From: Candidatus Aenigmatarchaeota archaeon | GTDB taxonomy: Archaea; Aenigmatarchaeota; Aenigmatarchaeia; QMZS01 | Reading direction: 5' to 3' | NCBI GenBank assembly: GCA_016932615.1 | Contig: JAFGCN010000007.1 | Coordinates: 19,189-83,188, forward strand | Length of the DNA stretch: 64,000 nt | Shown here: piece by piece, positions 359-27,183 of the stretch | Layout of the letters: every line of letters starts with the position of its first letter | Numbering within the stretch: the first letter of the stretch is position 1 | Program-made: the position numbers and the translations under genes | Notes under the pieces: model-generated | Seen by the model: only the letters and a program-made list of their open reading frames with translations | What the model was told of the DNA's origin: nothing | Database searches by the model: none

Positions 359-384
359 ACCTTCTTTCTTTAGAAAAGAAAGAA
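359..384 (+). repeat. intron hairpin (CTTCTTTCTTT / AAAGAAAGAA) 8 nt after the 5' splice site
   Basis: perfect 9-bp inverted repeat TCTTTCTTT-AGA-AAAGAAAGA. Confidence 0.6.
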
Positions 385-448
385 TGGCCGACACCTCCAA
401 GAAAGAAAACGGACGGTTGATGAAGTCAGGTAGACGTCGCAGGTAGAT

Positions 449-470
449 CCCTTTTCTTGAAAAGAAAAGG
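449..470 (+). repeat. intron hairpin (CCTTTTCTT-GAAA-AGAAAAGG)
   Basis: inverted repeat immediately downstream of the proposed T-loop splice site; same motif as 2163-2183. Confidence 0.6.
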
Positions 471-624
471 TCTCCATCCCAAAAGAAAAAGATTCAAGAA
501 AGACCGATGGAAGGCAAAGCCTCCCGTTATGTTCACCGTTTGGGGTGCAGACCTTTGGCCGAAGGCTAAAGGGTTGCTGCAATCGAATCCTGTCACGCCC
601 AAATTTTTAATTATATCTACACTT

Positions 625-1187
625 ATGTTTGACTATAAACTGGACGTTGGGGAAATGCTTGGAGAGATAAAAAGAGGTGAACGCTATGTCATCTTTCCGT
701 CAGAAATTGGAGAAAGAAAAGACCTGTTTGAAGAGCTTGGGGGGCTGGAGGTAAGCGACACCGATTTTTGGAAAATGTGTGGTCTGCATGGCACCTGGCA
801 AATTCCTGGACTTCCGGGGCTTTTTAGGGAAAAATACGGCCTAAGCGATGAGCAGGAGTTATTACTTGAGTTTCTCATAGAAAACGCCATAATTCATGGA
901 AACGAAATGACCCAGATAAGCAAATAGACATAAAAGTCCTTGTAGGAGACCACACTGCATTTAAGATAACAGACCAGGGGCTTGGATTCTACTCTCGTGA
1001 CGTCCAAGAGCGTTTTGAAAAGGGACTTCCCTATTCGGGAGGTAGTGGACTAGGCACCAGAGTAGCAGCCAAGTGCACCCAGTCGCGTCTTCGCTACCTG
1101 GAAAATGGAACTTCAGTAGAAGTGCTTTTCCTAAACCCAGAGGTTATGCCAAAGCCGTATTTTATGAAACTTTATCCAGCCCATTAG
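625..1187 (+). pseudogene. GHKL (histidine-kinase/anti-sigma-factor-like) ATPase, disrupted by a -1 frameshift near nt 904-908
   Basis: Frame 1 (625-927) ends ...EFLIENAIIHGNE, an N-box-like motif. Frame 0 continues NDPDKQIDIKVLVGDHTAFKITDQGLGF... (G1 box) and GGSGLGT (G2 box) up to the TAG at 1185-1187. The listed ORF start at 457 lies inside the tRNA; ATG 625 is the plausible start. Confidence 0.45.
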
Positions 1188-1193
1188 ACCAGT

Positions 1194-1421
1194 TCATCGC
1201 TCAACCCAGGTCCCAAGATCGTCCTTGACAAATTTTTCCTTTACCGCACTCCAGGCGACCTTGCTTGCAACCTCCTCCCTGCTCTCCTTATTTCGAATCC
1301 TCCTTGGGTCTCTGTAGGTTTCCCAGGCACTGTTAAATGCCTTCAGGTAAATTTCCTGGGCATGCTTTGGGAGCACTCTCCTGACAGAGGGAGGCAAATC
1401 GGTAAGGGATTTATGGGGCAT
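1194..1421 (-). CDS. ChaB family protein
   Basis: 75 aa; LPKHAQEIYLKAFNSAW motif typical of ChaB domain. Confidence 0.55.
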   Translation of the reverse strand: MPHKSLTDLPPSVRRVLPKHAQEIYLKAFNSAWETYRDPRRIRNKESREEVASKVAWSAVKEKFVKDDLGTWVER

Positions 1422-1486
1422 ATTTCATAAATATATGTTTTTTTCAGTATATATGCTACAGAAACTAACTCCTGTCCTGAAAGTAG

Positions 1487-1903
1487 CTAAACAGTAAGCC
1501 GGAGCTTTACTTCAGGGCAGCCGACAACCTCAACCATAACCTCAGTTATGCCTGGAAGAGTTGTCTGAAAGGAGATTGTCCGTATATCTGCCTTCTTTAT
1601 CACTTCAGCCACCTCCTTTAAAAGCTCCTGCCCCTTGTCGCTAAAGCCATAGACTGTGTAGCCCCGTATGTCTGCCCCCGAATTCTGAATCCGGATAAGC
1701 CCCTCCTGCGAGTTATTGTCATACTTGAAGTCCAGATGCTGAATGCTCACGCTCTGGCAATACGCATCCCCCTCAAGCTTTGAAATTTCACCCCGGGTGT
1801 AATTCATGGCCCAGGTGCCCACAATGGTCGCTATTGCAATGCTAAACGCGATAAGAAGAACAGAAGCAACGACAGGAGAAACCCCTTTGGGCCTATATCC
1901 CAT
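1487..1903 (-). CDS. class III signal peptide (archaeal type IV pilin-like) protein
   Basis: N-terminus RPKGVSPVVASVLLIAFSIAIATIV matches archaeal prepilin signal (KG-VSPV-hydrophobic). Confidence 0.55.
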   Translation of the reverse strand: MGYRPKGVSPVVASVLLIAFSIAIATIVGTWAMNYTRGEISKLEGDAYCQSVSIQHLDFKYDNNSQEGLIRIQNSGADIRGYTVYGFSDKGQELLKEVAEVIKKADIRTISFQTTLPGITEVMVEVVGCPEVKLRLTV

Positions 1904-1969
1904 AACTAATACCCTATTTTAAAATAACTCTGGCAATCATTTTATGCCTCTGTAGCTCAGTCGGCTGAA

Positions 1970-1990
1970 TCTTTTTCTTGCGAAGAAAAA
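1970..1990 (+). repeat. intron hairpin (CTTTTTCTT-GCG-AAGAAAAAG)
   Basis: perfect 9-bp inverted repeat 6 nt after proposed D-loop splice site. Confidence 0.6.
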
Positions 1991-2162
1991 GCTCCATGAC
2001 CAAAAAGAACCTGCGTTTTCCTTCGGGAAAACGATGCCTCATTTGCCCACGGGCAAATAGAGGGCAGTTTAGCCGCCTTGCGGCTTATAATTGACTACGG
2101 CTTGGAATTTCCGGCAAAGAGCGCGGGTTTTGTAAACCTGAGGTCGAGGGTTCAAGGTCATC

Positions 2163-2183
2163 CCTTTTCTTAAGAAGAAAAGG
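2163..2183 (+). repeat. intron hairpin (CCTTTTCTT-AAG-AAGAAAAGG)
   Basis: perfect 9-bp inverted repeat, nearly identical to 449-470. Confidence 0.6.
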
Positions 2184-2287
2184 TCTGACAACCCCAAAAG
2201 AAAGGGGGTTGTGATGAGGAGTCTCCCTCCAGGGGCTATATTTTATCAAAAACTATTTCTTTCAAACGAATTAATTCTGGAATTTTC

Positions 2288-3769
2288 TTATTTTCTGCCG
2301 CGATAAACCCTTTTCTGGTGTGTAGGCCGCCTTGCCTTTCCCCGCTTTATTTCGGGAGGGGCTCTTGCTTCGCCGCCTTGCCTGAAGGTTCTTTTTCCGC
2401 CAGTTCTTGGGCCTCCGTTTCCGGACGGCCTGAATCCAACTGGGTTTCCGCCGCTTCTGCCTGAACTAAATCCTCCTCGCGGACCGGACCTGTCTCCATA
2501 GCTGCTTCTTCCATAGCTTCCGCCACGGCTGCCACGGTCATCTCCGGGCCTGCCGCCTTCAGAACGATAACCCTGATCTTTGCCGCCGAATCTGCCTCCC
2601 CTGGAATCAAACCTCCCGCCTCGCTGGTCGCCAGTCCTTATTGACCTAATCCTTTCCACATAGGGCATCTTGGTTTCCGCTATCTCAAACTCATATTCCT
2701 TAAGAACCTGCCTGAAATTATCGGTGTCCCTACCGGAAACAAGGTTAATGACCATTCCCTCTTTGCCGGCTCTAGCGGTCCTTCCAGCCCGGTGGACATA
2801 TTCTTTTGCGTCCTTTGGGGAATCGTAATTGTAAACGTGGGACACGCCCTTAACGTCAAGCCCTCTTGCCGCAACATCTGTGCAAACCAAAACCCCGACC
2901 TTCTTTGAGTGAAATTTCTCCATCACAGTGTCGCGCTTGTTCTGAGTAAATCCGCCGTGTATCGGAAGCGCCTCTATTCCAAGCGCTTTGAGATTCTCGG
3001 AAACAAAATCGACATTCCTTCTCGTGTTGCAAAAAATCATCACAAGCCCAGGGTGCTCCTCTTTCAGAAGGTGGGCAAGAAGCGAGAACTTCAGGTTGTC
3101 AGGATAAACATCATAATAAATCTGCTTCAGTTTCTTCGGGTCAACATAATCGCCTGCAGAAATCCTGGTCGGCTCGCACAAAAACCTCTTTGAAAGCCCC
3201 TCGATTTCATAAGGCATCGTGGCCGAAAAAAGCATTGTCTGGCGGTCTTCAGGGCACTCGTAGATTATGTCCTCGACATCGGGAAGAAAGCCCATGTCAA
3301 GCATCAGGTCCGCCTCATCCAGAACAAGAATGAATACCTCCCGAAGGTCAACAGTTCCCCGGTCAATATGGTCAAGCATCCTGCCTGGAGTCGCAACTGC
3401 AATCTCAGCAGACTCAAGCGCTTTAACCTGCGGGTCAAAGGAAACGCCACCGTAAATAGAGGCGACTTTCAGTTTCTTGGCCTTTGCAAATTTCTTCAGG
3501 GTTTCCGACACCTGGTTTGCAAGCTCCCTTGTGGGAGTAAGCACAAGCCCCTGCAGGCCCTTTCCCTTCTCAATGGACTCTATCATTGGCAGGCCGAAGG
3601 CAAGAGTTTTTCCCGATCCCGTATAGGAAGCGGCAATAATATCCTGTCCCTTTAGCGCCATGGGAATTGTCTTTTCCTGAATCTCTGTAGGCACAGTGAT
3701 TTCAGCTTCCTTCAAAATAACCAGAAGATCATCGCGAATCCCCAGTTTTTTAAACTTGTCCATCACCAT
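2288..3769 (-). CDS. DEAD-box ATP-dependent RNA helicase with C-terminal RGG/Gly-Arg-rich tail
   Basis: Motifs AASYTGSGKT (Walker A), VLDEADLMLDMGF (DEAD), SAT, HRAGRTARAG. C-terminal ~130 aa RGG repeats ending in APPEIKRGKARRPTHQKRVYRGRK. Confidence 0.85.
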   Translation of the reverse strand: MVMDKFKKLGIRDDLLVILKEAEITVPTEIQEKTIPMALKGQDIIAASYTGSGKTLAFGLPMIESIEKGKGLQGLVLTPTRELANQVSETLKKFAKAKKLKVASIYGGVSFDPQVKALESAEIAVATPGRMLDHIDRGTVDLREVFILVLDEADLMLDMGFLPDVEDIIYECPEDRQTMLFSATMPYEIEGLSKRFLCEPTRISAGDYVDPKKLKQIYYDVYPDNLKFSLLAHLLKEEHPGLVMIFCNTRRNVDFVSENLKALGIEALPIHGGFTQNKRDTVMEKFHSKKVGVLVCTDVAARGLDVKGVSHVYNYDSPKDAKEYVHRAGRTARAGKEGMVINLVSGRDTDNFRQVLKEYEFEIAETKMPYVERIRSIRTGDQRGGRFDSRGGRFGGKDQGYRSEGGRPGDDRGSRGGSYGRSSYGDRSGPRGGFSSGRSGGNPVGFRPSGNGGPRTGGKRTFRQGGEARAPPEIKRGKARRPTHQKRVYRGRK

Positions 3770-3882
3770 ATATGCAGGAAAGCTTTAGTAGGGCATATAC
3801 TTGCAAGAAAATCCAATTCGATATATAACTCTAAAAAACAGGCAAAAAAACCAAAACATTCAAGCGATCTTTGGGGAAAATC

Positions 3883-4254
3883 TTATCTTCCCCGGTAAAC
3901 AGTTCTTGCAAGAGTGGTTTCTCCTCTTGCCTTCCCCCTTTTCACTTCGGGGGGCATTTTTTCCTCTTCTTCCTGTCTCCTATAACTTCTTCGTTCCCGG
4001 AACCTGTCCCGGCCTTCGCCTTCGTCCCTGTCTCTGAACCTCGGTCTTCCACGGCCTCTTTCTCCTTCAGGCCTCCGACCAAACCTATCGTCCCTTCTTT
4101 CTCCAAACCTGGAGTAACTTCTTCTTCTAAAGCCCGGCCTTTCGCTTCCCTCGGCGGGGCTTCTTTCACGGGGCATCTCGTCCCCGTAGTCTTCGTATTC
4201 TTCCATTACTGAAGTTGATTTGAAAGCTTTAGTAGTTGGTAAATCTAAATGCAA
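3883..4254 (-). CDS. Arg-rich low-complexity protein sharing the helicase C-terminal motif
   Basis: RD/RE/RG repeats ending MPPEVKRGKARGETTLARTVYRGR, cf. helicase end APPEIKRGKARRPTHQKRVYRGRK. Probable start at the internal Met (MEEYEDY...). Confidence 0.4.
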   Translation of the reverse strand: MHLDLPTTKAFKSTSVMEEYEDYGDEMPRERSPAEGSERPGFRRRSYSRFGERRDDRFGRRPEGERGRGRPRFRDRDEGEGRDRFRERRSYRRQEEEEKMPPEVKRGKARGETTLARTVYRGR

Positions 4255-4982
4255 TTCTGATTATGGTGCCACAGCATAAACCAAGTTTCAAAAATAATAC
4301 CCTTCCACGCCTCCTCCTTCTCGCCATTCTCTCAATACCCTTCATTTTCTTCTCCGAGTTCTATGCGCACTTCAGGGCATACCTGACCGGAAACATCATA
4401 ACGCAGGTCATTGTAGGAAACTGGCCAGTGGTTATTCTCAGCGCCCTTCTCTTTATTGCCTTCCTCATTCCCCTTTCTTACAGGCGGAAAGCCAACTGGG
4501 CAGAGTACGGCCTTGCAACCGCATTCTTCGTCTCGCTCTTTGTCGAGATGTACGGAATCCCCCTCACGCTACTTTTCGCCTCCCGCTTCTTCTACTCCCC
4601 CGAAATTTCGCTCCCAGGCGACTTCGCGCATGTGTCCCTTCCCGGCTTTTCATTTTCGATGGACCTTGCCATGACTTACGGGGCGGGGCTTATGGTTCTT
4701 GGCGGCACGCTCATAATCGCCGGCTGGGTGACTCTCTACAGGAGCGTCAGGAAAAACAAGCTCGTGACAGGCGGAATCTACGCCTATTCGCGCCACCCCC
4801 AGTATCTGGGCTTTATCCTGATTATTTTGGGATGGCTTTTCGGCTGGCCGACAATCCTTACCTTAATCTTCTCGCCAATACTGATTTACATGTACCTTCG
4901 GGCAAGCATCAGGGAAGAGGAGGAAATGGAAAAAATCTCTGACTACAAAAGGTATCGGGAAAGAGTGCCTTTTTTTATATAA
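4236..4982 (+). CDS. isoprenylcysteine carboxyl methyltransferase (ICMT/PEMT) family membrane protein
   Basis: multi-TM; YSRHPQYLGFILIILGW motif characteristic of ICMT family. Confidence 0.55.
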   Translation: MVNLNAILIMVPQHKPSFKNNTLPRLLLLAILSIPFIFFSEFYAHFRAYLTGNIITQVIVGNWPVVILSALLFIAFLIPLSYRRKANWAEYGLATAFFVSLFVEMYGIPLTLLFASRFFYSPEISLPGDFAHVSLPGFSFSMDLAMTYGAGLMVLGGTLIIAGWVTLYRSVRKNKLVTGGIYAYSRHPQYLGFILIILGWLFGWPTILTLIFSPILIYMYLRASIREEEEMEKISDYKRYRERVPFFI

Positions 4983-4998
4983 ATGCCCTTCAGTAATT

Positions 4999-5385
4999 AT
5001 GATTAAGTTTCGTGTTGGTCAGGCCTTTCCAAAAAACCCAAATTGTTGGGATACTCAGAAAGTAACTTCTCTCAAAGGTCCAGACCTAGGAGTTATTTCC
5101 CATTTCTTAGAGCACCTATGCTACGCATACCCGGGATTAAACATCGTAGACAAGGGGGATATTTTCTACATGGGTTCTGGCTGCATTGAGTACGACCTGC
5201 TACTAGAAGACAAACGAATAGGTCTCATCAAGACCTACTACCAAAACAACAAGTTTATGTCCGCAAGTTATGATGGGCTCTATCCTAAATGCAATGATAT
5301 GCCCGTTAACTTCATTTTCGGGAAATATGGGGGTAGAAAGGACAAATCCCCAATAGACCAAAAAGTATCCTTGCCAAATAACTAA
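4999..5385 (+). CDS. hypothetical protein
   Basis: 128-aa ORF, no recognisable motif. Confidence 0.3.
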   Translation: MIKFRVGQAFPKNPNCWDTQKVTSLKGPDLGVISHFLEHLCYAYPGLNIVDKGDIFYMGSGCIEYDLLLEDKRIGLIKTYYQNNKFMSASYDGLYPKCNDMPVNFIFGKYGGRKDKSPIDQKVSLPNN

Positions 5386-5395
5386 CGGGTTAATT

Positions 5396-5611
5396 ATGGC
5401 AGCGGACAAAAAGAAGGAAAGGTGGGTTTATGTCTGCCCAAAATGCGGCAGCAAAGATATTGCCATAAGGTCATGGGACATTGCATTTAACGAAAAAATC
5501 TGCAGCCGCTGCGGCTACACTTCCCAGTTCTTCCCGCAGGTTCCCCTGAAAGCAAGGAAAAAGCAAGCGGGCGAAATCAAGAAGCGGCCCTCTCCAAAAG
5601 GCAAGTTATAG
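5396..5611 (+). CDS. small zinc-ribbon protein
   Basis: CPKCGS...CSRCGY two CxxC pairs, basic C-terminus. Confidence 0.4.
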   Translation: MAADKKKERWVYVCPKCGSKDIAIRSWDIAFNEKICSRCGYTSQFFPQVPLKARKKQAGEIKKRPSPKGKL

Positions 5612-5621: not shown

Positions 5622-6155
5622 ATGAACGAAATAGTTGATAAGGTGATTGAGTTTGCGTCCAAGCACTACCAGAAATCTGACGGGATTCATGGAATAAGCC
5701 ACGCAAAAACCACCGCAAAATTCGCCGAGGTTCTTGCCAAAGCCGAAGGGGCAAATGTGGAAAATTGCGTGATGGCTGCCTGGCTTCACGACATTGCCCG
5801 GAAAAAGGAGTGGGTGGTTGAAACCCCGGAAGAAAACCACGGCGTCTGGGCAGCTCGCCTTTCAAGGCCTTTTCTTGAGTCTCTTGGGCTTTCAGGGGCA
5901 GATATTGGCGAAATCTGCACTGCACTAAGCGAGCACTGCCTCCCGGGAAAGCAGACAACGCTCGCCTCAAAAATCCTCTGGGACTCCGACAAATTAAACC
6001 ATTTTGACAAGGAGAGGGAAAAAGAGTACCTGAAATACCTAGCTAAAGAGCAGGGAACTCCTGAGAAAGCGCGCCAGACTGAGGAGAAAATAAGGGCGGG
6101 CTACATTAAGCATTTCCAGACAAAAACCGCCCGGGAACTTTCAGGCCAGAATTAG
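5622..6155 (+). CDS. HD-domain phosphohydrolase
   Basis: HGISHA ... WLHDIARK ... DSDKL motifs (H..HD..D). Confidence 0.6.
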   Translation: MNEIVDKVIEFASKHYQKSDGIHGISHAKTTAKFAEVLAKAEGANVENCVMAAWLHDIARKKEWVVETPEENHGVWAARLSRPFLESLGLSGADIGEICTALSEHCLPGKQTTLASKILWDSDKLNHFDKEREKEYLKYLAKEQGTPEKARQTEEKIRAGYIKHFQTKTARELSGQN

Positions 6156-6173
6156 AAATTTTTAATCCCAGTT

Positions 6174-7013
6174 ATGAGAGAAAAGCCCTATATCGAGGTT
6201 ACGGGCATAGCAACCCAGGAAGACGCAAAGCAGGTGATAAGCGGATTCAAGAGAGCCGGGATTTCAATGGAGAAAAGCCACATTCCGATGGCTGGCGTGC
6301 TCTCCTCGCACGAGCCCGAAAATACTTACACAAGTGACTGGCGCTATCCCCGGCCGGAACGGCTGAGAGGAATTTTTGAAGACCTGTCAAAACTAGGAAT
6401 TGCTGCGCTCCACTACGACAGCAAAAACCCAAAAGGATTTGCAGAAAAGCTTTACCCCATCTTAAGACCCCTTTACGAAAAGGGCCTTTGCAAAGGCCTC
6501 CAGATTAATGTGCATAGCCCCGATAAAGGCCAGGTTAAAAAGATAGCTTCAAGCTTCCCAGAACTTGAGATCATACTCCCCCTCACAAGGAATGGGCTAA
6601 AAATCGCCACAGGAAGTGAAGAATATGAGCCAATAAGAGTGGCTGACTACATAAGACCCTATTACGATTTTATCAGCTATGTCCTGGTTGACCCCTCACT
6701 TGGAAAAGGGGGGGAGTTAAATGCAAATGTCTACGCTGACATCTATGCAGTAATTGATGAACAGTTCCCTGAGGTATGCACAATACTTGCAGGAAGCTTC
6801 GACCATAATAATGTCCACTCACGCATCCGGAATCTGATGGATTACATTGGTTCTGGCTTTGGAATCGATGCCCAAAGTGGGCTAAGGTCCCAGGTCAGGC
6901 CTAAAGGAATAACCGATAGCCAATTCAACAAAAATAAGCACAAATACACCCTCTTTGCTCCCGAACGGGCAAATGAATACCTTAGAAACGCAGCCAGGGC
7001 ATTTGGGGTTTAG
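6174..7013 (+). CDS. phosphoribosylanthranilate isomerase (TrpF)-like TIM-barrel protein
   Basis: YIEVTGIATQEDAKQV (cf. KICGIT..EDA), VLVDPSLGKGGE, ILAGSFDHNNV, GIDAQSGLRS..PKGITD resemble TrpF landmarks; longer than canonical TrpF. Confidence 0.4.
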   Translation: MREKPYIEVTGIATQEDAKQVISGFKRAGISMEKSHIPMAGVLSSHEPENTYTSDWRYPRPERLRGIFEDLSKLGIAALHYDSKNPKGFAEKLYPILRPLYEKGLCKGLQINVHSPDKGQVKKIASSFPELEIILPLTRNGLKIATGSEEYEPIRVADYIRPYYDFISYVLVDPSLGKGGELNANVYADIYAVIDEQFPEVCTILAGSFDHNNVHSRIRNLMDYIGSGFGIDAQSGLRSQVRPKGITDSQFNKNKHKYTLFAPERANEYLRNAARAFGV

Positions 7014-7097: not shown

Positions 7098-8960
7098 ATG
7101 GATTATATCAAAGTCGTTGAGCAAAATCTCCCTGACGTTAGCGACGCCAGGATACACTACGAGGGAAGCAAGATTGTCGTATACACGAGAAATCTCAATT
7201 TTTTCCTCACAGGCGAAGACAAGATAAGGGGGATTGTGGACCAGATTAAAAAAAGAATAGAGGTAAGAATAGAGCCGGACACACTCCCTTCAACTGATGA
7301 CACCATAAAGAAAATAAAGGAGATTATCCCAAAAGACGCAGGAATTGAAGACATTTCATTTGAGCCGGATTTCTCGAAAGTCATAATAAGCGTGCGCCAG
7401 CCGCAGATTGCAGTTGGCGAAAGCGGGGAGACCGTAAAGGAGATAAAAAAGGAAACGCTATGGATTCCATTTGTCCAGAGAGTCGCTTCCCCAAAGTCCG
7501 TGCCTGTCGAAGCCATAAGGAAAGTTTTGTATGAAAGCTCGAAGTTCCGGAAGAAATTCCTTAATGACGTCGGAAAGCAGATTTACAGCGCTGAAAACAA
7601 GGACACCAAATGGGGGCGCGTATCCTGCCTTGGCGGAAGCAGGGAAGTAGGAAGGTCATGCTTCCTCCTCCAGACCCCAAACTCAAAAATACTAATGGAC
7701 TGCGGTCTGTCTACTGGCGCAACAGGGGAAGACCAGTACCCCATATTTCTCAGCGGCGAGTTCGACATAAACTCGCTTGACGCAATAATCCTGAGCCACG
7801 CGCACCTTGACCACTGCGGATTTATCCCTTACCTTTACAAAATGGGCTTTAACGGGCCTCTCTACTGCACTACCCCCACAAGGGAGCTTGCAGCCCTCCT
7901 CCAGATGGACACGATAGACATAATGCAAAAGGACATGGGAAAAAGCCTGTACACTTCAACTGACATAAAGAACATGATTAAGCACACGATACCGCTCAAA
8001 TATAAGGAGATAACTGACATCACTTCCGACATCCGGCTTATTTTCGAGAACGCAGGGCACCTCCTTGGAAGCGCAATCACCCACCTCAACATTTCAAATG
8101 GAAAAAGAAACCTTATCTACACCGGTGACATCAAGTATTCTGTCTCAAACCTTCTTGACCCTGCATTCACCCAATTCATGCGCTGCGAGTGTTTGATAAT
8201 GGAAAGCACTTACGGCGGGCCTAATGACCTAACGCCTCGGCTTGAAGACGCAGAAAAGGACCTTGTTTACGCAGTCGAGGAAACCGCAAAAAGAGGCGGA
8301 AAAGTTTTGATACCAAGCTTTGCGGTTGGAAGAGGCCAGGAGATAATGATAATACTTGACAAGTATGGAATAGACCTTCCGGTTTACATCGACGGAATGA
8401 TTTGGGATGCGTCATCCATACACTCGACTTACCCCAAGTACCTGTCCTACAAGCTTCAGAGGCAGATTATAGAGGAAAACAAAAACCCATTCGAGTCGGA
8501 CAAGTTCATCCATGTTGCAAGCAGAAAGGAGCGTGACCAGGTAATCGCAGACCAAAAGCCATTTGTGGTCCTGGCAACCTCCGGCATGGTAAACGGCGGG
8601 CCGATTATGGAATACATAAAGAAATTCGGCTCCGACCCTAAAAACACGCTTGTTTTCGTCGGTTACCAGGCGGAAGGCACGATCGGGAGAAAAATACAGA
8701 GAGGCGACAAGGTCATCGAAACCCCTGACGGCGAGCAGGTCGAAATCAACCTCCAGATAAAAACTATAGACGGGCTTTCCGGCCACTCAGACAGGAAACA
8801 ATTGCTAAATTACATCGGCCACCTGAAGGAAAAGCCGCAGCGGCTTGTAGTAGCCCACGGCGAGATGAGTAAGTGCGTCAACTTCGCGGATGCTGCAGGC
8901 AAGATTTTCGGGATAGATGCAATAGCGCCGTGGAACCTTGAGACATTCAGGTTTTTGTAG
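7098..8960 (+). CDS. fttA: archaeal CPSF1 / FttA (KH-KH-MBL-beta-CASP ribonuclease, transcription termination factor)
   Basis: 620 aa; N-terminal KH-like region then metallo-beta-lactamase motif ILSHAHLDHCG and beta-CASP region; size and architecture match aCPSF1. Confidence 0.8.
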   Translation: MDYIKVVEQNLPDVSDARIHYEGSKIVVYTRNLNFFLTGEDKIRGIVDQIKKRIEVRIEPDTLPSTDDTIKKIKEIIPKDAGIEDISFEPDFSKVIISVRQPQIAVGESGETVKEIKKETLWIPFVQRVASPKSVPVEAIRKVLYESSKFRKKFLNDVGKQIYSAENKDTKWGRVSCLGGSREVGRSCFLLQTPNSKILMDCGLSTGATGEDQYPIFLSGEFDINSLDAIILSHAHLDHCGFIPYLYKMGFNGPLYCTTPTRELAALLQMDTIDIMQKDMGKSLYTSTDIKNMIKHTIPLKYKEITDITSDIRLIFENAGHLLGSAITHLNISNGKRNLIYTGDIKYSVSNLLDPAFTQFMRCECLIMESTYGGPNDLTPRLEDAEKDLVYAVEETAKRGGKVLIPSFAVGRGQEIMIILDKYGIDLPVYIDGMIWDASSIHSTYPKYLSYKLQRQIIEENKNPFESDKFIHVASRKERDQVIADQKPFVVLATSGMVNGGPIMEYIKKFGSDPKNTLVFVGYQAEGTIGRKIQRGDKVIETPDGEQVEINLQIKTIDGLSGHSDRKQLLNYIGHLKEKPQRLVVAHGEMSKCVNFADAAGKIFGIDAIAPWNLETFRFL

Positions 8961-17557: not shown

Positions 17558-19261
17558 TCAGAAATACCTTGGCTTCCTTTTGTGGTACTTGGTATGAAGA
17601 AGCTTTTCGGCTTTTTTGCTTAGCGGCTTTCCCAGGAAGTCCTTGTAAAGCGTCTGGATGTCCGGGTTGTGGCTTGAAATTCTTATGGAAAGCCCCTTAT
17701 CTTCCTTGTAAAGCGCCTCCATTCTCTTGAGCCGAATCTCATTTGTAGTGGGCCTCGGCTGACCACCGCCCCCGATGCATCCGCCAGGGCACGCCATGAC
17801 CTCGATAAAGTGATATTTCTTCCACTGCCCGCCGTCGAAAAACTTCCTGATGTTTCCTAAGGTGTGGACAATAGCAACCTTTATGCGCTCTCCGGCAATA
17901 GAAATTTCCGCTTCCCTGATTCCATCGAGCCCGCGAACAGAAGTAAAGTCCAGCTTATTCAGGGATTTTCCGGTAAGCTCCTCATAGGCAACCCTTAGCG
18001 CCGCCTCCATCACGCCGCCAGTGACTCCAAAAAGGGCGGCCCCTCCGCTTGAAGAGCCAAGCGGCGTGTCGTAATCCCCGTCAGGCAACTTTGAAAATTC
18101 TATTCCCTTGGACTTAATGACCCGACCAAGTTCCCGGGTAGTCAGAACAAGGTCAACATCCGGCGAGCCGGTTGTCCTCATTTCGGGCCTTGCCGCTTCA
18201 AGCTTCTTTGCAACGCACGGCATTATCGACGCCACGAAGATACCTTTAGCATCTTTTCCAAGAAGCTTTGCGTAGTAATTTTTGGCTACTGCCCCGAACA
18301 TCTGCTGTGGCGACTTGCATGATGAGATATGCTTAAACAGATGCGGGTAATTCTGCTCGGCAAAAACAATCCAGGAAGGGCAGCAGGAAGTAATAAGCGG
18401 CAGGTTTTTCTTCTTTTTGTACCTCTCCAGAAATTCATTTGCTTCCTCCATTATAGTAAGGTCTGCCGCAAAGTTCGTGTCAAACACCTTGTCAAAGCCA
18501 ATTTTTTTAAGGGCGGAGACCATCTTTCCCTTTACCAAAGTGCCTGGAGCCATGCCAAACATCTCGCCTAGCGACGCCCTGACCGCAGGCGCGGTCTGCA
18601 CTACATAAAACTTTTTCTTGTGCGAGATATCCAGTGCCATCTCATCTATCGTTCTTACAAGCTTTTCGCTCAGCGCCCTTTCCCGGAGAGCGGTTGTCGG
18701 GCAGTAGAGCGCGCATTGGCCGCAGAAAGTGCATGGCGATTCGAGCATCGGCGTATTGTAAGGGGTGGTTATGGATGAGCAGACGCTCCGGTTCACAACA
18801 TCAATGTTCTCTATTCCCTGAATCCTGGAGCAGACCTGGGCGCACCTTCCGCAAAGGACGCAAAGCCGGCCTTCCCGCTCCAGAGGAACCGCCCTCTTGC
18901 AGGAAGAAATGCTTGAAGAGCCAAACATTGTCTTTTCTATTCCAAGCTCCCGAAAGACCTTGGTAATCTCCACGTCATTGTCGCTATGCGCATTTCCGTG
19001 CAAAAGCTCCGCATTCAGCTTTCTTGCATCAGTCACCCGCTTCGTATGGGTCAGAACTTCCATCCCTTCCCTTACCGGAGTATTGCAAGACGTTACAAGC
19101 TTTCCGTCTGCTTCAACGATGCATATCCTGCACCGCCCTTCCGGCTTGAGGTCGGGATGGTAGCAAAGTGTAGGTATGCTTATGCCGATTCTTTTGGCAA
19201 CCTCGAGAATTGTCTCTCCATCTTTTGCAAACACCCTTTTTCCATCGATTTTTACCTGCAT
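17558..19261 (-). CDS. hydA: [FeFe]-hydrogenase catalytic subunit HydA
   Basis: N-terminal 2Fe-2S ferredoxin fold, two 4Fe-4S motifs (CVLCGRCAQVC, CTFCGQCALYCP), H-cluster motifs L1 TSCCPSW, L2 MPCVAKKLE, L3 EVMACPGGCIGGGGQP. Confidence 0.8.
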   Translation of the reverse strand: MQVKIDGKRVFAKDGETILEVAKRIGISIPTLCYHPDLKPEGRCRICIVEADGKLVTSCNTPVREGMEVLTHTKRVTDARKLNAELLHGNAHSDNDVEITKVFRELGIEKTMFGSSSISSCKRAVPLEREGRLCVLCGRCAQVCSRIQGIENIDVVNRSVCSSITTPYNTPMLESPCTFCGQCALYCPTTALRERALSEKLVRTIDEMALDISHKKKFYVVQTAPAVRASLGEMFGMAPGTLVKGKMVSALKKIGFDKVFDTNFAADLTIMEEANEFLERYKKKKNLPLITSCCPSWIVFAEQNYPHLFKHISSCKSPQQMFGAVAKNYYAKLLGKDAKGIFVASIMPCVAKKLEAARPEMRTTGSPDVDLVLTTRELGRVIKSKGIEFSKLPDGDYDTPLGSSSGGAALFGVTGGVMEAALRVAYEELTGKSLNKLDFTSVRGLDGIREAEISIAGERIKVAIVHTLGNIRKFFDGGQWKKYHFIEVMACPGGCIGGGGQPRPTTNEIRLKRMEALYKEDKGLSIRISSHNPDIQTLYKDFLGKPLSKKAEKLLHTKYHKRKPRYF

Positions 19262-21886: not shown

Positions 21887-21965
21887 AATAGATTAAAGAG
21901 TTAACCTATAAAGTACCGGACATTTCCGGTTTGCCTAGTGACCTCCACTACACTAACTGCTTAGC

Positions 21966-23168: not shown

Positions 23169-23281
23169 CCTCAAAAATGGCCGGGTTCAAGGAGGGGACT
23201 ATTTGAATCTCCAGCATTCCGTTGCCCACCTGCACCAATTAAGCTTGCCTCTAAAACCTTCGTACAGAAAACAGAAGATCA

Positions 23282-23602
23282 TCAAGGAACAAGCCCCGGA
23301 AACTTCTGGCGGCAGTACTGCTTGCACTCGTCAGAATTAAGGGCCATGTTCTTCATGGACAGCCGGCATGCATGAAGAAGAGTGTCTGATGCGCCATCAT
23401 CATCTATGTCGCCAAGCATTAAAGCACTGGGGTCCATACCAGTTTCGGCAAATTTCCTGCAGCCGTCGTTTAAGGCGGACTCAACCGATAAACCTGACAT
23501 CTGTCCCATCGACCCGCTAAGGTAAAGCACGCTTAAGACAAGAACAATTGCTCCAAGAGCAACAATAATTATGCTGTTTACGGTAAGCTCGATGCCCTTC
23601 AT
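23282..23602 (-). CDS. small class III signal peptide (pilin-like) protein
   Basis: MKGIELTVNSIIIVALGAIVLVLSV N-terminus. Confidence 0.4.
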   Translation of the reverse strand: MKGIELTVNSIIIVALGAIVLVLSVLYLSGSMGQMSGLSVESALNDGCRKFAETGMDPSALMLGDIDDDGASDTLLHACRLSMKNMALNSDECKQYCRQKFPGLVP

Positions 23603-23632
23603 AAATATACTGTATTTCTATAGCTATTATTT

Positions 23633-23953
23633 ATGAGGCAAGGCAACCTGACCATAGAACACGTGATTCTATTGTTAATAGCACTCCTTGTTCTCGTAGT
23701 GTCCTACCTTTTCGTAAATGGCTCCATAAAAGGCCCTACAAACAGCACAACCGAGCTGACGCAAACCTACAGCGAGTGTAACAAGTGGAGGATGTTTGGC
23801 TACCTGGGAACAGATTTCTCAACACACGTTGACGGAAAGCCAAAATACCCTGCGCTGTGGCAGACCTACGTAGGTGCAATCACAAATACACCGACCCCAG
23901 AACAAATAGAGCAGGCAAAAAAATACTGCACCCTGTCGCAAAATAGCCCTTAA
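23633..23953 (+). CDS. small membrane-anchored protein, pilin-like N-terminus
   Basis: MRQGNLTIEHVILLLIALLVLVVSY N-terminus. Confidence 0.35.
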   Translation: MRQGNLTIEHVILLLIALLVLVVSYLFVNGSIKGPTNSTTELTQTYSECNKWRMFGYLGTDFSTHVDGKPKYPALWQTYVGAITNTPTPEQIEQAKKYCTLSQNSP

Positions 23954-24006
23954 AAAGCAGGCCAAAACCTCAAAATCAGAAATGAATTATTATTCCAGAT
24001 TCATTT

Positions 24007-25503
24007 ATGTTCATCGAGCATCCTCTGATTAAAAAGGGGGCTTTGCAGATAAGAGACTATCAGGTCGAGATTGCAAAAAGCGCGATAAGTAAAAATACTC
24101 TTGTTGTGATACCTACCGGAATGGGAAAGACGAACATTGCGCTTCTCGTAGTCGCCGAGCGGCTCAATAAGGTGGATGGAAAGGTCCTTTTTCTTGCCCC
24201 CACAAAGCCGCTTGTCGAGCAACACAAGAAGACCTTTGAAAAGCTGTCTGAACTTGCAGACCTGGAAGTCATAACCGGGACAATAAGGCCGGACCTTCGC
24301 GGGAAGCACTACCAGCGCTCAAGAATTATATTTGCAACGCCCCAGACTATTGAAAATGACCTGAAGAGCGGAATTCTAAATTTCGAGGATTTTGTCCTGC
24401 TGATTGTTGATGAAGCGCACCGCTCTGTCGGAAACTATGCTTACACATACATTGCAGAAAACTATATGGGGCGGGCGAAAAATCCACTTCTTATCGCGCT
24501 TACCGCCTCTCCTGGAGGGAGGGTTGCACGGGTCGAGGAAATAAAGAAAAACCTGTTCATAGAATCAGTTGAATTTCGCTCTGAAAAAGATTCTGATGTT
24601 TCCCAGTATGTAAAAGACCGGGAAATGAATACTGTTCAGGTCGAGCTTCCAGCAGAATACCTTGAGGCAAAGAAACTTCTCCAGGAGATAATTTCGTCAA
24701 AGTCCGATACTCTTTGTTCAATGGGCGCGGTTCCTACAAAAAAGTTCTCCAAGAAGATGCTTTTGGAGTTCCAGAATTTCTACGCAAAGAAGGCAAGCCA
24801 GACGAAAAATCCCCGTCTCTTCCAAGCGATGTCAAAAATAGCCGAGCTGATAAAGCTGGACTACTGTCTTGAATTGCTTGAAACTCAAGGGGCGGCGCCT
24901 CTCAGGGAATACCTCAAAAAGCTGAAAACCGAAAGCACCAAGGCCTCAGCCAGCATGCTTAATAACCCCAAGTTTATGGGATTTTTAAAGCGTGCGGAAA
25001 ACCTGCCCGACCACCCCAAAATGAATGAGCTTGAAAAAATCGTCAAAAGCGAAATCGAAAAAAAGGTCATTGTGTTCACTCAGTACCGGGCCACAGCTAG
25101 CGACATACTATTTAACCTGAAGCGCATTGAGGGTGTGAAGCCCGCACTCCTGATAGGGCAGAAATCCGGCCTGACTCAAAAAGAGCAGGTAAGCGTCATC
25201 AGGGACTTTGAGGATGGGTTCTTTAATGTATTGATTTGCACATCCATTGGCGAGGAAGGGCTCGACATAAAAGGCGTTGGAACGGCCGTCTTTTACGAGC
25301 CGGTCCCTTCAGAAATAAGGAGCATCCAGAGAAGGGGGAGGGTTGCGCGGCTTGTCGAGGGAAAGCTGTATGTTCTGGTTGCAAAAGACACCCGGGATGA
25401 AGCATACTACTGGACGGCTTACCACAAGGAAAAGAAGATGAGCCGGTCGCTTGGTGGCGAAAAAGAGCAGGCAAAGCTGGGAGACTTTGAAAGCCAGGGG
25501 TAG
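24007..25503 (+). CDS. Hef/ERCC4-type superfamily 2 helicase (helicase domain only)
   Basis: VVIPTGMGKT Walker A, LIVDEAHRSVGNYAY (DEAH), QRRGRVAR motif VI; inserted helical region between RecA-like lobes typical of Hef/FANCM family. Confidence 0.6.
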   Translation: MFIEHPLIKKGALQIRDYQVEIAKSAISKNTLVVIPTGMGKTNIALLVVAERLNKVDGKVLFLAPTKPLVEQHKKTFEKLSELADLEVITGTIRPDLRGKHYQRSRIIFATPQTIENDLKSGILNFEDFVLLIVDEAHRSVGNYAYTYIAENYMGRAKNPLLIALTASPGGRVARVEEIKKNLFIESVEFRSEKDSDVSQYVKDREMNTVQVELPAEYLEAKKLLQEIISSKSDTLCSMGAVPTKKFSKKMLLEFQNFYAKKASQTKNPRLFQAMSKIAELIKLDYCLELLETQGAAPLREYLKKLKTESTKASASMLNNPKFMGFLKRAENLPDHPKMNELEKIVKSEIEKKVIVFTQYRATASDILFNLKRIEGVKPALLIGQKSGLTQKEQVSVIRDFEDGFFNVLICTSIGEEGLDIKGVGTAVFYEPVPSEIRSIQRRGRVARLVEGKLYVLVAKDTRDEAYYWTAYHKEKKMSRSLGGEKEQAKLGDFESQG

Positions 25504-25548
25504 GGCAAGCAAAAAAAGACACACAAAAAAGCAATTTGGCTAAGTGGC

Positions 25549-25695
25549 TTATTCATCAGTTTTCTTTGGCTTCCTTACCGCAACTGGCCCAATATAGCCG
25601 CAATCGAGGCAGTCGTACTGGTTGTCCTGGCCTCCCAGGTAAGGGCTAAGCTCTGTAGAGCCGCACTTCGGGCACTTGAGAGGCGATTTGTTCAT
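25549..25695 (-). CDS. small zinc-ribbon protein (48 aa)
   Basis: MNKSPLKCPKCGS...YDCLDCGY; divergent from YcaO gene at 25736; below ORF-track size cut-off. Confidence 0.35.
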   Translation of the reverse strand: MNKSPLKCPKCGSTELSPYLGGQDNQYDCLDCGYIGPVAVRKPKKTDE

Positions 25696-25735
25696 AATAT
25701 TCCAAAACTTATAAGAGTTCAAAACTATTGGATTT

Positions 25736-26932
25736 ATGAAGCCAATCGTCCTGAAAAAATGCCTAAAGAAATATACCTACGACACCGACAAGGCAGAAAC
25801 GCCCAAAGACACTATCGGAAGAGTGACTCGGGTCCTAAAGGGGCAAGGACTAAATATCGTCTTCGAAAAGCTGGAAAACAGGGCAAATATTCCCGTCTAC
25901 CGCGTAGTTTCTGCCGATCCTTCCAAGGATTATTCTTCCCTAGTCTTTAGCGGAAAGGCGCACGGAAAAGGTGCGACTGAAAGCCAGGCGAAGTGCAGCG
26001 CTCTTATGGAGTGGGTGGAACGAGTAAATGCTGGAAACGCAATACGCCTGCTTGCAAAAGACAAGGAAACAATCTTCAGGGCTCATGAAACTATCCCTTC
26101 AGAATCCACTATAGATATCAAATATATGCTGTCTTACAGCCATAACCCTAGCTTTTATGGGAAAAGTGCAGAAAGGATTATCAAACGCAAAAAAATGCAT
26201 TTTATGAAAGCTTACTGCCTTACCGATAAACGGGAGAGATATCTACCATTTTTATGGCACCTGTACTTCAATGGGTCAAATGGGCTTGCCTCAGGAAACA
26301 CTTACGAGGAAGCTGTTCTTCAGGCGCTTTGTGAAGTTATCGAAAGACACAATATTGTGGAGATAAAGACATTAAATTCAAAAGTAAACGCTATCGAGCT
26401 AGGCTTTCCCTGCAAGCCCCTCGCAGAAATGCTTTCAAAAATCCAGGAAGTTACTGCAAGACCAATCATACAAAAGTGGAGCCGCCCGATACCAGTCCCC
26501 ACTGTCGCCTGCAGGCTACACGATAGCACTGGATACGGAACTGCTCCAAGCCCAGCAAAAGCAGCCATGAGAGCCATAACAGAAGCCATACAAGAAGATA
26601 CCGCTACGAGACGGTATGGACAAGATAGTGCCACAATCAAGATTGAGTCACAAGAGCCAATACCTCTCAGCAGTATGGAAAGCCTGGAGAGGGAAGATCT
26701 GTATGATGAGATTAATGAAATCTCAAGGATTCTTGAGTCCATGGGGCATATGATATATGTTATGGATTTCTCCTCAATCGTCCCCATACCCACTGTCGAG
26801 GTGATTGTGCCTGGACTCAGGTCTGTCGACTACACTGGAAGAGATCGCCACCTACGGGAATTTCAGTCTTGCCTTATTGAGTATTTTAACCTCGTAGCAA
26901 GCTTACCTCAGTGGAATATTTTAACCGCTTAG
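25736..26932 (+). CDS. YcaO-domain protein
   Basis: 398 aa; SGKAHGKGATESQAKCSALMEWVERVNAG signature; paralog of 21966-23168 (shared CxKKYTYDxDKAExP N-terminus). Confidence 0.7.
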   Translation: MKPIVLKKCLKKYTYDTDKAETPKDTIGRVTRVLKGQGLNIVFEKLENRANIPVYRVVSADPSKDYSSLVFSGKAHGKGATESQAKCSALMEWVERVNAGNAIRLLAKDKETIFRAHETIPSESTIDIKYMLSYSHNPSFYGKSAERIIKRKKMHFMKAYCLTDKRERYLPFLWHLYFNGSNGLASGNTYEEAVLQALCEVIERHNIVEIKTLNSKVNAIELGFPCKPLAEMLSKIQEVTARPIIQKWSRPIPVPTVACRLHDSTGYGTAPSPAKAAMRAITEAIQEDTATRRYGQDSATIKIESQEPIPLSSMESLEREDLYDEINEISRILESMGHMIYVMDFSSIVPIPTVEVIVPGLRSVDYTGRDRHLREFQSCLIEYFNLVASLPQWNILTA

Positions 26933-26992
26933 CCACTCTGCAGAATCACCTTCAGAAGAAGACTTCCATAGATACTTAACCGATAAAAATAA

Positions 26993-27183
26993 CGCTGGGG
27001 GCAAGATTTGAAATCGCGGAAAACCTCATAGCCAATTTAGCAGTAATATTCCTGCTTTGCAGGAATCTGCTTCTTTTGACGTTGAGGCATTATTCTTCCT
27101 CGGGAAGAATAAAGCTTCACTCGCGCCTCCTTGCGGAGACCAGCTTTCCAGGCTGGCGCCTTAGACCACTCGGCCACCCCAGC
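26993..27183 (-). tRNA. tRNA-Ser(GGA) with a ~107-nt intron between T-stem and T-loop (53/54)
   Basis: Minus-strand exon 1 (27183-27120): GCTGGGG-TG-GCC-GAGTGGTCTAA-GGC-G-CCAGC-CTGGAAA-GCTGG-long variable arm-GCGAG. Exon 2 (27012-26993): TTCAAAT-CTTGC-CCCCAGC-G. Acceptor arms pair perfectly; the T-stem GCGAG/CTTGC pairs with one G-U. Confidence 0.65.
27089..27112 (-). repeat. intron hairpin (TTTATTCTTCC-CGAG-GAAGAATAA) 6 nt after 5' splice site
   Basis: inverted repeat in tRNA-Ser intron, same pyrimidine-arm/purine-arm design as the other four intron hairpins. Confidence 0.55.

Follow-up and report, generated by a model that had tools for sequence, protein, structure and literature searches.

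The 64,000-nucleotide stretch of Candidatus Aenigmatarchaeota contig JAFGCN010000007.1 analyzed here (positions 19,189 to 83,188, in the following called the window) carries three interrupted tRNA genes, for arginine, threonine, and serine, and all five introns of these genes contain the same kind of hairpin close to the 5′ splice site. This raises the question why introns at different positions of three different tRNAs should share such a structure. A first-pass annotation of the sequence had considered a common origin by intron proliferation, a recognition or folding element for the splicing endonuclease, and an intron-encoded guide RNA. Our analysis shows that the five hairpins are homologous and belong to a widespread structured module of triplex-type layout, which stands at the 5′ end of bulge–helix–bulge (BHB) introns. 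These introns form a family which occupies different tRNAs and different positions and turns over between relatives. Taking all observations together we consider it somewhat more probable than not that this intron family is built around a dispersed structured module which folds autonomously beside the 5′ bulge and has been spread as an intron.

Anatomy of the interrupted tRNA genes

ARAGORN called no tRNA on the raw, unspliced window, and Rfam found only the 16S rRNA and a single tRNA with a large insertion, the tRNA-Ser locus (37.9 bits). Because tRNAs were missed by these programs on the unspliced sequence, the introns were placed by hand, combining a reading of the sequence with a BHB finder. 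Removal of the five introns in silico (Table 1) yielded normal cloverleaves which ARAGORN called as Arg(tct), Thr(tgt), and Ser(gga), and we therefore conclude that the introns are real.

In a BHB motif a 4-bp helix lies between two 3-nt bulges, one on each strand, and each bulge is cleaved past its second nucleotide. This central helix is fully paired in Arg intron 1 (CTTC/GAAG), Arg intron 2 (GCAG/CTGC), Thr intron 1 (GTCG/CGGC), and the Ser intron (CGCG/CGCG), and three of the four pairs are formed in Thr intron 2 (TTCA/GGAG). Complete flanking helices, that is an outer helix and an inner helix h′, are found only in Arg intron 1 (outer CTACC/GGTAG, inner GTCAG/TTGAT, bulges TA^A and TC^A) and in the Ser intron (outer helix of 2 bp, inner GAAG/TTTC, bulges AG^T and AT^T). 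The remaining three introns are relaxed. In Arg intron 2 and Thr intron 1 the central helix is accompanied only by an inner helix of 0–3 bp: the outer and the inner long-range helix are absent from Arg intron 2, the splicing of which yields a normal T arm, and Thr intron 1 has an inner GAA/TTC helix and no outer one. In Thr intron 2 there is an outer helix GAGGG/CCCTC and an inner helix TCATC/GATGA. A strict BHB spanning 2157–2220, which would make this last intron 3 nt shorter, was rejected because the T loop of the product would have 10 nt. Disrupted tRNA genes with relaxed-BHB introns at non-canonical positions, together with splicing endonucleases of broadened specificity, are a known trait of the DPANN archaea (PMC5829648).

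A hairpin and a mirror purine tract in all five introns

All five hairpins are perfect, with stems of 9–10 bp and loops of 3 nt (Table 1); the listing of perfect stems gives the one of the Ser intron as TTATTCTTCC/loop/GGAAGAATAA. The matching hairpins reported by the first-pass annotation are thus confirmed, four of them starting 0–1 nt from the positions it had given. It had also placed them 6–8 nt downstream of the 5′ splice site. They do lie near the splice sites, but the actual distances are 9, 5, 5, 6, and 7 nt (Arg 1, Arg 2, Thr 1, Thr 2, and Ser), so that the exact range does not hold. A CT-rich 5′ arm and a GA-rich 3′ arm are present as described, but since a pyrimidine/purine hairpin looks alike on both strands, this composition says nothing about the strand. 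Perfect stems of at least 8 bp with a loop of 3–7 nt are rare: they occur at about 12 loci of the window, and seven of these loci are inside the introns.

When the introns were folded together with their exon flanks, the hairpin (hairpin 1) was present in five of five minimum-energy folds, with z-scores of −1.8 to −4.4. In these folds it is a side branch beside the BHB without coaxial continuation, and it does not prolong the BHB helix, as had been conceivable. In three introns (Arg 1, Arg 2, and Thr 2) the second intron nucleotide is the starting point of an extended form of the hairpin; in Thr intron 2 a lower helix GTCA (2157–2160)/TGAC (2186–2189) is possible across a TC/TC loop.

A third element had been overlooked. 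A purine tract which is the mirror image of the 3′ arm follows 10–14 nt past the hairpin, separated from it by a C-rich and G-poor spacer. Equivalently this tract (R′) is the parallel complement of the 5′ arm, with the pairs of blocks TTTTCTT and AAAAGAA, CTTTTTCTT and AAAAAGAA, TTCTTTCTT and AAGAAAGAA, and UUCUUC and AAGAAG. It is the mirror purine tract that makes the layout strand-specific and non-random. We scanned the window for an exact succession of pyrimidine block, loop, reverse complement, spacer, and mirror (k = 6) and took 100 Markov simulations as background. The exact pattern is found only in the five introns and always on the tRNA-sense strand, with a Markov mean of 0.07; the exact block matches are 6–10 nt long in all five introns. 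Arms which are A/T-rich and homopolymer-like easily give short repeats, and chance low-complexity sequence with nothing shared between the introns has therefore to be weighed. Five observed loci against about 0.07 expected, flanks conserved across phyla, a covarying helix, and at least 118 further copies (see below) reduce the chance of this explanation to practically nothing.

The distal purine tract could also be a direct repeat of the 3′ arm which would allow alternative Watson–Crick pairing with the 5′ arm. This was rejected, since the mirror beats the direct repeat at Thr intron 1, where there is no direct-repeat match, at the Ser intron, where the spacing of the G residues fits the arm in mirror register (pattern match 27070–27109), and in large samples. 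The latter come from a scan of 185,579 species genomes with the hairpin-only pattern; here and in the metagenome scan the counts are samples among the matches listed. Of the matches listed, 28 archaeal and 96 bacterial hairpins, an AAAAGAA mirror stood within 25 nt of 23 and 66, respectively, and the direct repeat AAGAAAA of 3 and 5. For hairpins with other, non-canonical arms the matching mirror 7-mer was found in 67 and the direct one in 27 of 111 listed matches, and perfect mirrors of 12–13 nt are among them.

The order pyrimidine block (Y), loop, purine block (R), spacer, and R′ is the block order of a class II potential intrastrand triplex (PIT) motif. In class II a pyrimidine block is followed by a purine and a reverse-Hoogsteen purine block, and the complementary strand is of class IV with a Hoogsteen pyrimidine, a pyrimidine, and a purine block (PMC4666352). 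The loops of such motifs are limited to 1–6 nt in ITxF and to 0–10 nt in Hoyne et al.; in the window loop 1 has 3 nt but loop 2 has 10–14 nt and is too long for the short-loop definition. Pyrimidine-motif triplexes form in RNA, purine-motif ones do not (PMC4666352). The mirror tract would hence be expected to form no purine-motif triple helix in RNA; such a helix could form in the single-stranded non-template DNA.

We also analyzed the introns for guide RNA boxes. The tRNA-Trp intron of Haloferax and other Euryarchaeota encodes a box C/D small RNA (sRNA), and the setting in an archaeal tRNA intron is alike. Such an sRNA has box C (RUGAUGA) close to its 5′ end and box D (CUGA) close to its 3′ end, with a terminal stem joining the two, and further D′/C′ boxes inside. 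RUGAUGA-like and CUGA-like strings are indeed present, as the first-pass annotation had pointed out (TGATGA at 418–423, CTGA at 2185–2188, and GTGATGA at 2211–2217), but the boxes and their arrangement are absent or unconserved. The string at 418–423 belongs to the BHB of Arg intron 1, where it makes up the inner plus central helix, the order in Thr intron 2 is D-like then C-like and a terminal C/D pair is missing, three of the five introns have no boxes at all, the homologues L004, L141, and L181 lack them, and Rfam reports nothing at E ≤ 1. An intron-encoded box C/D guide sRNA is thus very improbable.

The module is conserved and its lower helix covaries

The relevance of the sequence around the hairpin was analyzed with exact-pattern scans and a gap-free sub-alignment instead of a covariance model, because the variable loop lengths mis-register a MAFFT alignment. 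tRNA context was assigned with a small hidden Markov model (HMM) and leader context by an open reading frame (ORF) rule; the metagenome contigs carry no taxonomic labels. The core of the module, ATCCCTTTTCTT-loop-AAGAAAAGGTCT-N-CCCCAAAAGAA, occurs in Aenigmarchaeota, Micrarchaeota, Iainarchaeota, and in metagenomes. The flanks outside the search pattern are conserved as well, in labelled Aenigmatarchaeota, Micrarchaeota, Iainarchaeum, and unclassified archaeal genomes, and the consensus reads (A/G)ATC-CCTTTTCTT-loop-AAGAAAAGG-TCT-N6-10-CCCC-AAAAGAA. A second pattern derived from the flanks retrieved at least 120 metagenome stretches with at least 118 unique copies. Beyond the window the module is found at many other tRNA loci and, in addition, at gene starts. 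A virus-borne module was rejected, as IMG/VR gave 0 matches. Rfam has no family matching the module in the window (even at E ≤ 1) or at ten other loci, and the bacterial elements mentioned below are unmatched too. The hairpin with its mirror purine tract is a conserved and seemingly undescribed sequence element of DPANN tRNA introns.

With a length of 45–90 nt the module comprises a variable lower helix (about 5 bp), which extends hairpin 1 across an internal loop of invariant TC/TC sequence, the 9–10 bp hairpin itself, the C-rich spacer, and the mirror purine tract. The spacer and the sequence past the tract usually form a second variable hairpin with the tract in or near its loop, as at 2189–2211. 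When 28 copies were aligned without gaps, each of the four variable pairs in the lower helix showed 8–15 double-sided changes and three or four Watson–Crick pair types. The covariation score is 0.317 compared with 0.077 for shuffled alignments (reached by none of 500), and slid controls gave at most 0.084. The lower helix is 84–86% Watson–Crick paired in both the tRNA and the leader context (130 copies).

Among the matches listed with tRNA-fragment flanks in the HMM analysis the module is in sense orientation in 41 and in antisense orientation in 3 cases. The preceding exon ends 4–14 nt before hairpin 1 and the next exon starts 8–185 nt past R′ in these matches. The distance to the 5′ exon is short and that to the 3′ exon varies widely, and it is thus the 5′ end of the intron which the module marks. 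The insertion points cluster near tRNA positions 12–23, 36–40, and 57–59, i.e., in the D, anticodon, and T loops. As to the antisense exceptions L126 (~6100–6500), L231, and L240 (also L219, L222, L241, and L131), L126 has tRNA halves on both sides and is an antisense-oriented intron copy; the others precede the 3′ portion of a tRNA, where the gene may be split or otherwise unusual.

Similar sequences are present outside the DPANN archaea. The hairpin with AAAAGAA is found in a T-loop intron of a tRNA from a Thermoplasmata metagenome-assembled genome (MAG; L074, 1374–1474), and MAGs of ANME-1 (anaerobic methanotrophic archaea)/Methanomicrobia (L044, L064, L070, and L075) contain AAACCTTTTCTT-loop-AAGAAAAGGTTT in intergenic or tRNA-3′-flanking position. 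The module may thus be more widely archaeal. In Clostridia/Oscillospiraceae MAGs there are intergenic repeat arrays in which a pyrimidine/purine hairpin is directly followed by C-(mirror purine tract)-C, for example ...AAGAAAAGGAC-CAAAAGAAC (L011 700–930; L027 1220–1650; L067 150–610; L021, L032, L048, L084, L099, and L120). The variants of these repeats obey the mirror rule and the bacterial loops have 1–3 nt. They were rejected as ordinary terminators, there being no U-tract past the stem on either strand.

Introns turn over between relatives

The relative L004 is syntenic with the window, with the helicase (68% identical), tRNA-Thr, a pilin-like gene, ChaB, and tRNA-Arg in the same order. 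Its tRNA-Thr exons are identical save for 2 nt in the D loop, and its D arm is uninterrupted, so the Thr D-loop intron of the window is absent. The Thr T-loop intron of L004 sits at the same site, is longer, and has a canonical BHB; its cargo is a module almost identical to that of Arg intron 1 of the window, plus a second canonical hairpin. A 28-nt stretch, AGAAAAGGTCTGACAACCCCAAAAGAAA, is identical between Thr intron 2 of the window and tRNA-Arg intron 1 of L004, and a hairpin GATTCCTGC...GCAGGAATATTAC is common to Arg intron 2 of L004 and the Ser intron of the window. Because neutral DNA is saturated at 68% protein identity, the stretches shared with L004 are either strongly selected or recently moved.

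The similarity does not cover whole introns: the 5′ module and sometimes a second hairpin are shared, and the 3′ parts and the lengths (67–152 nt) differ. To sum up, of the earlier interpretations common origin or proliferation is the one supported. The five hairpins belong to one module family, the comparison with L004 reveals gain, loss, and shuffling, and D-, anticodon-, and T-loop positions are occupied in many tRNAs.

Copies in opposite orientation at gene starts

At least 31 distinct ORFs (of at least 40 aa) begin 2–10 nt from the end of hairpin 1 on the strand opposite to the module. The leader of their mRNA reads UUCUUUUGGGG-N-AGA-CCUUUUCUU-loop-AAGAAAAGG-GAU-N-AUG, and a TATA-like AATAATATT box is located about 60–70 nt upstream of the ATG. 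The genes code for the ribosomal proteins (r-proteins) S3Ae, S17e, uS12, L21e, uS2, L30e/L7Ae, L14, S3, and S6e and further for aIF2alpha, RNA polymerase A′, Spt5, and Rrp41-like and pilin-like proteins; several copies sit within r-protein operons. The window itself has intron copies only and no leader-type copy. We rejected the possibility that the leader copies are BHB introns, as no convincing BHB is found on either strand, and an explanation of the leader arm by Shine–Dalgarno/anti-Shine–Dalgarno pairing is unsupported, the 3′ end of the 16S rRNA reading GGATCACCTCA. In the leader copies the mRNA strand folds 3–6 kcal/mol better than the other strand, with 16% versus 4% G.U pairs in the predicted helices. 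The tRNA-class copies have 10.6% versus 13.3% G.U and no strand asymmetry (difference from the leader class p = 0.003 and 4e-6). The gene-start copies look like a regulon-wide 5′ leader, the 5′ pyrimidine tract of which could make a U.A-U triple helix with the hairpin.

The two orientations suggest a further explanation, namely that the excised and perhaps circularised introns act in trans as antisense RNAs which pair with the mRNA leaders of r-protein, RNA polymerase, and initiation-factor genes and so couple tRNA output to the synthesis of the translation apparatus. In the conserved segments (ATCCC, both arms, TCT, and CCCCAAAAGAA) an intron copy reads as the reverse complement of a leader copy. 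The orientations are strict among the matches listed (41 sense to 3 antisense in tRNAs, 31 of 31 ORF-adjacent copies opposite), the leader genes include S3Ae, S17e, uS12, L21e, uS2, L30e/L7Ae, aIF2alpha, RNA polymerase A′, L14, S3, S6e, and Spt5, and in Thr intron 2 the purine tract is displayed in a hairpin loop, a typical seed geometry. There is also a precedent in yeast, where free tRNA introns reduce the levels of complementary mRNAs (bioRxiv 10.1101/2025.11.19.689297). Both cases concern tRNA introns of the excised type with long complementarity to mRNAs; the yeast targets, however, are scattered coding regions, whereas the complementarity in DPANN archaea is to one shared 5′ leader element. 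Complementarity arises automatically when one element is present in opposite orientations. Moreover, no leader-type copy lies in the 64-kb window and no single genome is shown with both kinds matching in their variable parts; contig L193 has an intron copy and a leader copy, but their lower helices are not the same, and the predicted G.U pairs of the tRNA-class copies lack strand asymmetry. We therefore give an antisense function a small chance only. The same small chance applies to its strongest form, in which a triplex-capable leader shared by r-protein, RNA polymerase, aIF2alpha, and pilin genes would loosely resemble that of 5′ terminal oligopyrimidine (5′TOP) mRNAs and the tRNA introns would deliberately carry its exact antisense and tune the mRNAs of the translation apparatus.

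Comparison with known repeats and introns

Fujishima et al. reportedly described in 2010 paralogous "transposed" BHB introns at non-canonical positions of Thermoproteales tRNA genes. Like these introns and the disrupted tRNA genes of DPANN archaea (PMC5829648), the window introns are BHB introns of the protein-spliced kind, lie in D, anticodon, and T loops with several introns per tRNA, are related in sequence between tRNAs, and vary in presence among relatives, in a background of broadened endonuclease specificity. They differ in that the similarity resides in a discrete structured module at the 5′ end and not in the whole intron, and in that this module, with its mirror segment of triplex type, is shared by several DPANN phyla and occurs also outside tRNA genes.

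Among repeats the closest layout is that of BoxC (TMECO) of Escherichia coli, the best-studied PIT/ITxF motif, which reads CCCTCNCCC-N3-6-GGGNGAGGG-N3-GGGNGAGGG (PMC4666352). Both have their blocks in the order Y, loop, R, loop, mirror R′ (class II, purine motif), with class IV on the complementary strand, a rule which the Clostridia matches obey as well, and BoxC also is a dispersed intergenic repeat with many copies. In contrast to BoxC, the module is A/T-rich and not G/C-rich, its second loop is 10–14 nt long and often structured, it is archaeal, it is placed strictly at intron 5′ ends and start codons, and it has an extra covarying lower helix; its triplex is only potential.

Bacteria also possess miniature repeats that carry promoters or ribosome binding sites, for example miniature inverted-repeat transposable elements such as Correia/NEMIS, and REP/BIME. 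These too are short structured repeats next to gene starts with many copies per genome, some with a TATA-like promoter box. In the module, however, terminal inverted repeats, target-site duplications, and a link to a transposase were not found, it is conserved across phyla, and it resides within spliced tRNA introns.

Splicing signal, DNA element, or autonomous module

We propose that in the pre-tRNA the module would fold alone into a very stable extended stem–loop 0–4 nt past the 5′ cleavage site. This stem–loop would insulate long introns from mispairing with the exons and would provide an intron-side helix at the 5′ bulge, also in those introns that have a poor long-range inner helix h′ or none. 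Any insertion able to form the 4-bp central helix could then be excised by the DPANN endonuclease of broad specificity, and the introns would become portable. The near-constant orientation in tRNA genes would simply be inherited, which is the simplest explanation for the bias if the family spreads as an intron.

Several observations do not fit easily into this picture. The module stands in opposite orientation and without a BHB before the start codons of at least 31 genes, and from these copies outside introns it follows that its primary function, if any, is not splicing. Thr intron 1 is without a lower helix and its hairpin is 5 nt away from the splice site; Arg intron 1 and Thr intron 2 have a competing long-range inner helix. 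Selection, or a function in trans, could equally well underlie the bias in orientation. Finally, the lower helix is nearly free of G.U pairs (1 of 112 variable cells; 4 versus 4 on the two strands), which is unusual for a helix selected as RNA only and hints at a constraint at the DNA level or on both strands.

A related but stronger claim is that the hairpin is an obligatory surrogate of h′ which the DPANN endonuclease requires and which is selected for splicing. Among the matches listed the module is always at the intron 5′ end with the exon 4–14 nt from hairpin 1, in three of the five introns of the window the extended stem starts from the second intron nucleotide, the 5′ bulge of Arg intron 2 has no other helix beside it, and several of the BHBs are relaxed. 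But identical modules are found reversed in mRNA leaders lacking a BHB, 3 of 44 tRNA-associated copies among the matches listed are antisense, the hairpin of Thr intron 1 is not attached to the bulge, the hBHBh′ motifs of Arg intron 1 and the Ser intron are complete and do not need the hairpin, and the mirror tract is left without a role. We thus hold an obligatory splicing signal to be unlikely, though with an appreciable minor chance of being correct. A dedicated recognition element for the endonuclease, as suggested initially, is not supported, the module being present outside tRNAs, reversed, and without a BHB, and the hairpin being a side branch in the folds. In a weaker version the extended hairpin of the three introns in which it begins at nucleotide 2 could act as a stand-in for the inner helix h′.

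The scarcity of G.U pairs brings up the alternative that the module works as DNA, either as a palindrome with a mirror repeat bound by a dimeric regulator or as a triplex or cruciform modulating transcription or recombination, and that the introns merely house it, being the sole part of a tRNA gene able to accommodate such DNA. The Watson–Crick-only covariation with scarcely any G.U on either strand, the perfect 9–10 bp stems, and the mirror repeats, which are meaningful only for triplex geometry, would all fit, as would the same pattern in bacterial intergenic repeats. Purine-motif triplexes form in DNA and not in RNA, and for the comparable BoxC/TMECO elements of bacteria both DNA triplex formation and an association with unstable loci are described (PMC4666352). 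The strong bias of orientation relative to transcription in both niches, however, is unexpected for a symmetric operator, the better folding of the mRNA strand and its G.U content in the leaders point to RNA-level selection there, and the 10–14 nt spacer exceeds the 1–6 nt loops of the motif definition. A DNA-level element has in our view a slim chance. The reading we prefer remains that of a dispersed, autonomously folding module around which a mobile intron family is built.

Gene neighborhood and further observations

A 5-kb Logan contig (SRR13394437) is identical to positions 1–3242 of the window. The DEAD-box helicase at 2288–3769 (−) shows 100% identity with an NCBI protein from Candidatus Aenigmarchaeota, and the window belongs to a MAG of this group. 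Outside the module, the long introns hold further near-perfect hairpins which are unrelated to it, at 2014–2033, 2047–2068, and 2083–2098 in Thr intron 1 and at 27039–27066 in the Ser intron. AT-rich, TATA-like strings are TTATAATT near 2086–2093 in Thr intron 1 and AATATTA at 27039–27045 in the Ser intron, the latter resembling the promoter box of the leader cassette. An extra pyrimidine/purine hairpin, CCTTTTTT-AA-AAAAAAGG, at 287–304 is 10 nt 5′ of tRNA-Arg, where it overlaps what is probably the TATA region; it lacks a mirror tract.

The mechanically predicted ORFs 457–927 (+), 370–582 (−), and 426–602 (−) overlap tRNA-Arg and its introns and are almost certainly not genes; the true ORF downstream of tRNA-Arg probably starts near 626. 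The ORF 7098–8960 (+) is probably an aCPSF1/FttA-type KH/beta-CASP nuclease, an assignment based solely on the relatives L002 and L004, whose 620-aa ORFs contain these Pfam domains. No r-protein genes were among the ten window ORFs scanned with Pfam. The 16S rRNA gene (53182–54636) is solitary, being followed by a methyltransferase ORF at 54745 and not by a 23S gene, and the usual CCUCC anti-Shine–Dalgarno core is lacking at its 3′ end (54626–54640). The tRNA-modification genes TYW3 (58720–59295, −) and Trm5/TYW2 (60725–61519, −) share the window with the interrupted tRNAs.

Table 1. Coordinates of the tRNA genes, introns, module elements, and related features (window positions unless a contig is named)
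Feature	Position	Strand	Remarks
tRNA-Arg(TCT), two introns	314–601	+	Exons 314–352, 428–444, 583–601; spliced 75-nt tRNA called by ARAGORN
Arg intron 1, 75 nt	353–427	+	Canonical position 37/38; strict hBHBh′
Hairpin 1, Arg intron 1	362–384	+	TTCTTTCTTT-AGA-AAAGAAAGAA, perfect 10 bp
Mirror segment R′, Arg intron 1	399–409	+	AAGAAAGAAAA
Arg intron 2, 138 nt	445–582	+	T-loop position 54/55; relaxed BHB
Hairpin 1, Arg intron 2	450–470	+	CCTTTTCTT-GAA-AAGAAAAGG; 446–447/473–474 add 2 bp across TC/TC internal loop
Mirror segment R′, Arg intron 2	481–487	+	AAAAGAA, CCC before it
tRNA-Thr(TGT), two introns	1946–2237	+	Exons 1946–1965, 2118–2156, 2224–2237; spliced 73-mer called by ARAGORN
Thr intron 1, 152 nt	1966–2117	+	D-loop position 20/21; relaxed BHB
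Hairpin 1, Thr intron 1	1971–1991	+	CTTTTTCTT-GCG-AAGAAAAAG
Mirror segment R′, Thr intron 1	2002–2009	+	AAAAAGAA; mirror, not direct copy, of 3′ arm
Thr intron 2, 67 nt	2157–2223	+	T-loop position 59/60; relaxed BHB
Hairpin 1, Thr intron 2	2163–2183	+	CCTTTTCTT-AAG-AAGAAAAGG
Hairpin 2, Thr intron 2	2189–2211	+	CAACCCC/GGGGTTG; loop holds mirror segment AAAAGAA (2196–2202)
DEAD-box helicase	2288–3769	−	
tRNA-Ser(GGA), one intron	27183–26993	−	Exons 27183–27120, 27012–26993; spliced 84-mer called by ARAGORN
Ser intron, 107 nt	27119–27013	−	Position 53/54; hBHBh′-like
Hairpin 1, Ser intron	27090–27112	−	UUAUUCUUCC-CGA-GGAAGAAUAA, 10 bp
Mirror segment R′, Ser intron	27070–27077	−	AAAAGAAG in RNA sense
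Second hairpin, Ser intron	27039–27066	−	AUUCCUGC-AAA-GCAGGAAU, then AUAUUAC; common to L004 tRNA-Arg intron 2
Leader copies (DPANN-type contigs)	L036 3832–3942; L098 692–818; L106 ~1380–1451; L046 ~3433–3476; L113 ~2470–2537, ~7160–7236; many of L125–L244		

Implications

The contents of the non-canonical introns of DPANN archaea have hardly been examined so far, and many of them share one conserved structured module. This offers a concrete handle on the origin and the spread of such introns, and the module could help to find hidden tRNA genes, three of three having been missed here by ARAGORN and two of three by Rfam. In mirror orientation the same module is found again in the leaders of the most highly expressed genes, which makes it a first candidate for a cis-element common to the translation-apparatus genes of DPANN archaea. 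It also extends the bacterial phenomenon of intrastrand triplex repeats to archaea and to RNA-processing contexts. If the complementarity between introns and leaders were functional, it would represent a new type of regulatory circuit with a direct RNA link of tRNA output to ribosome synthesis.

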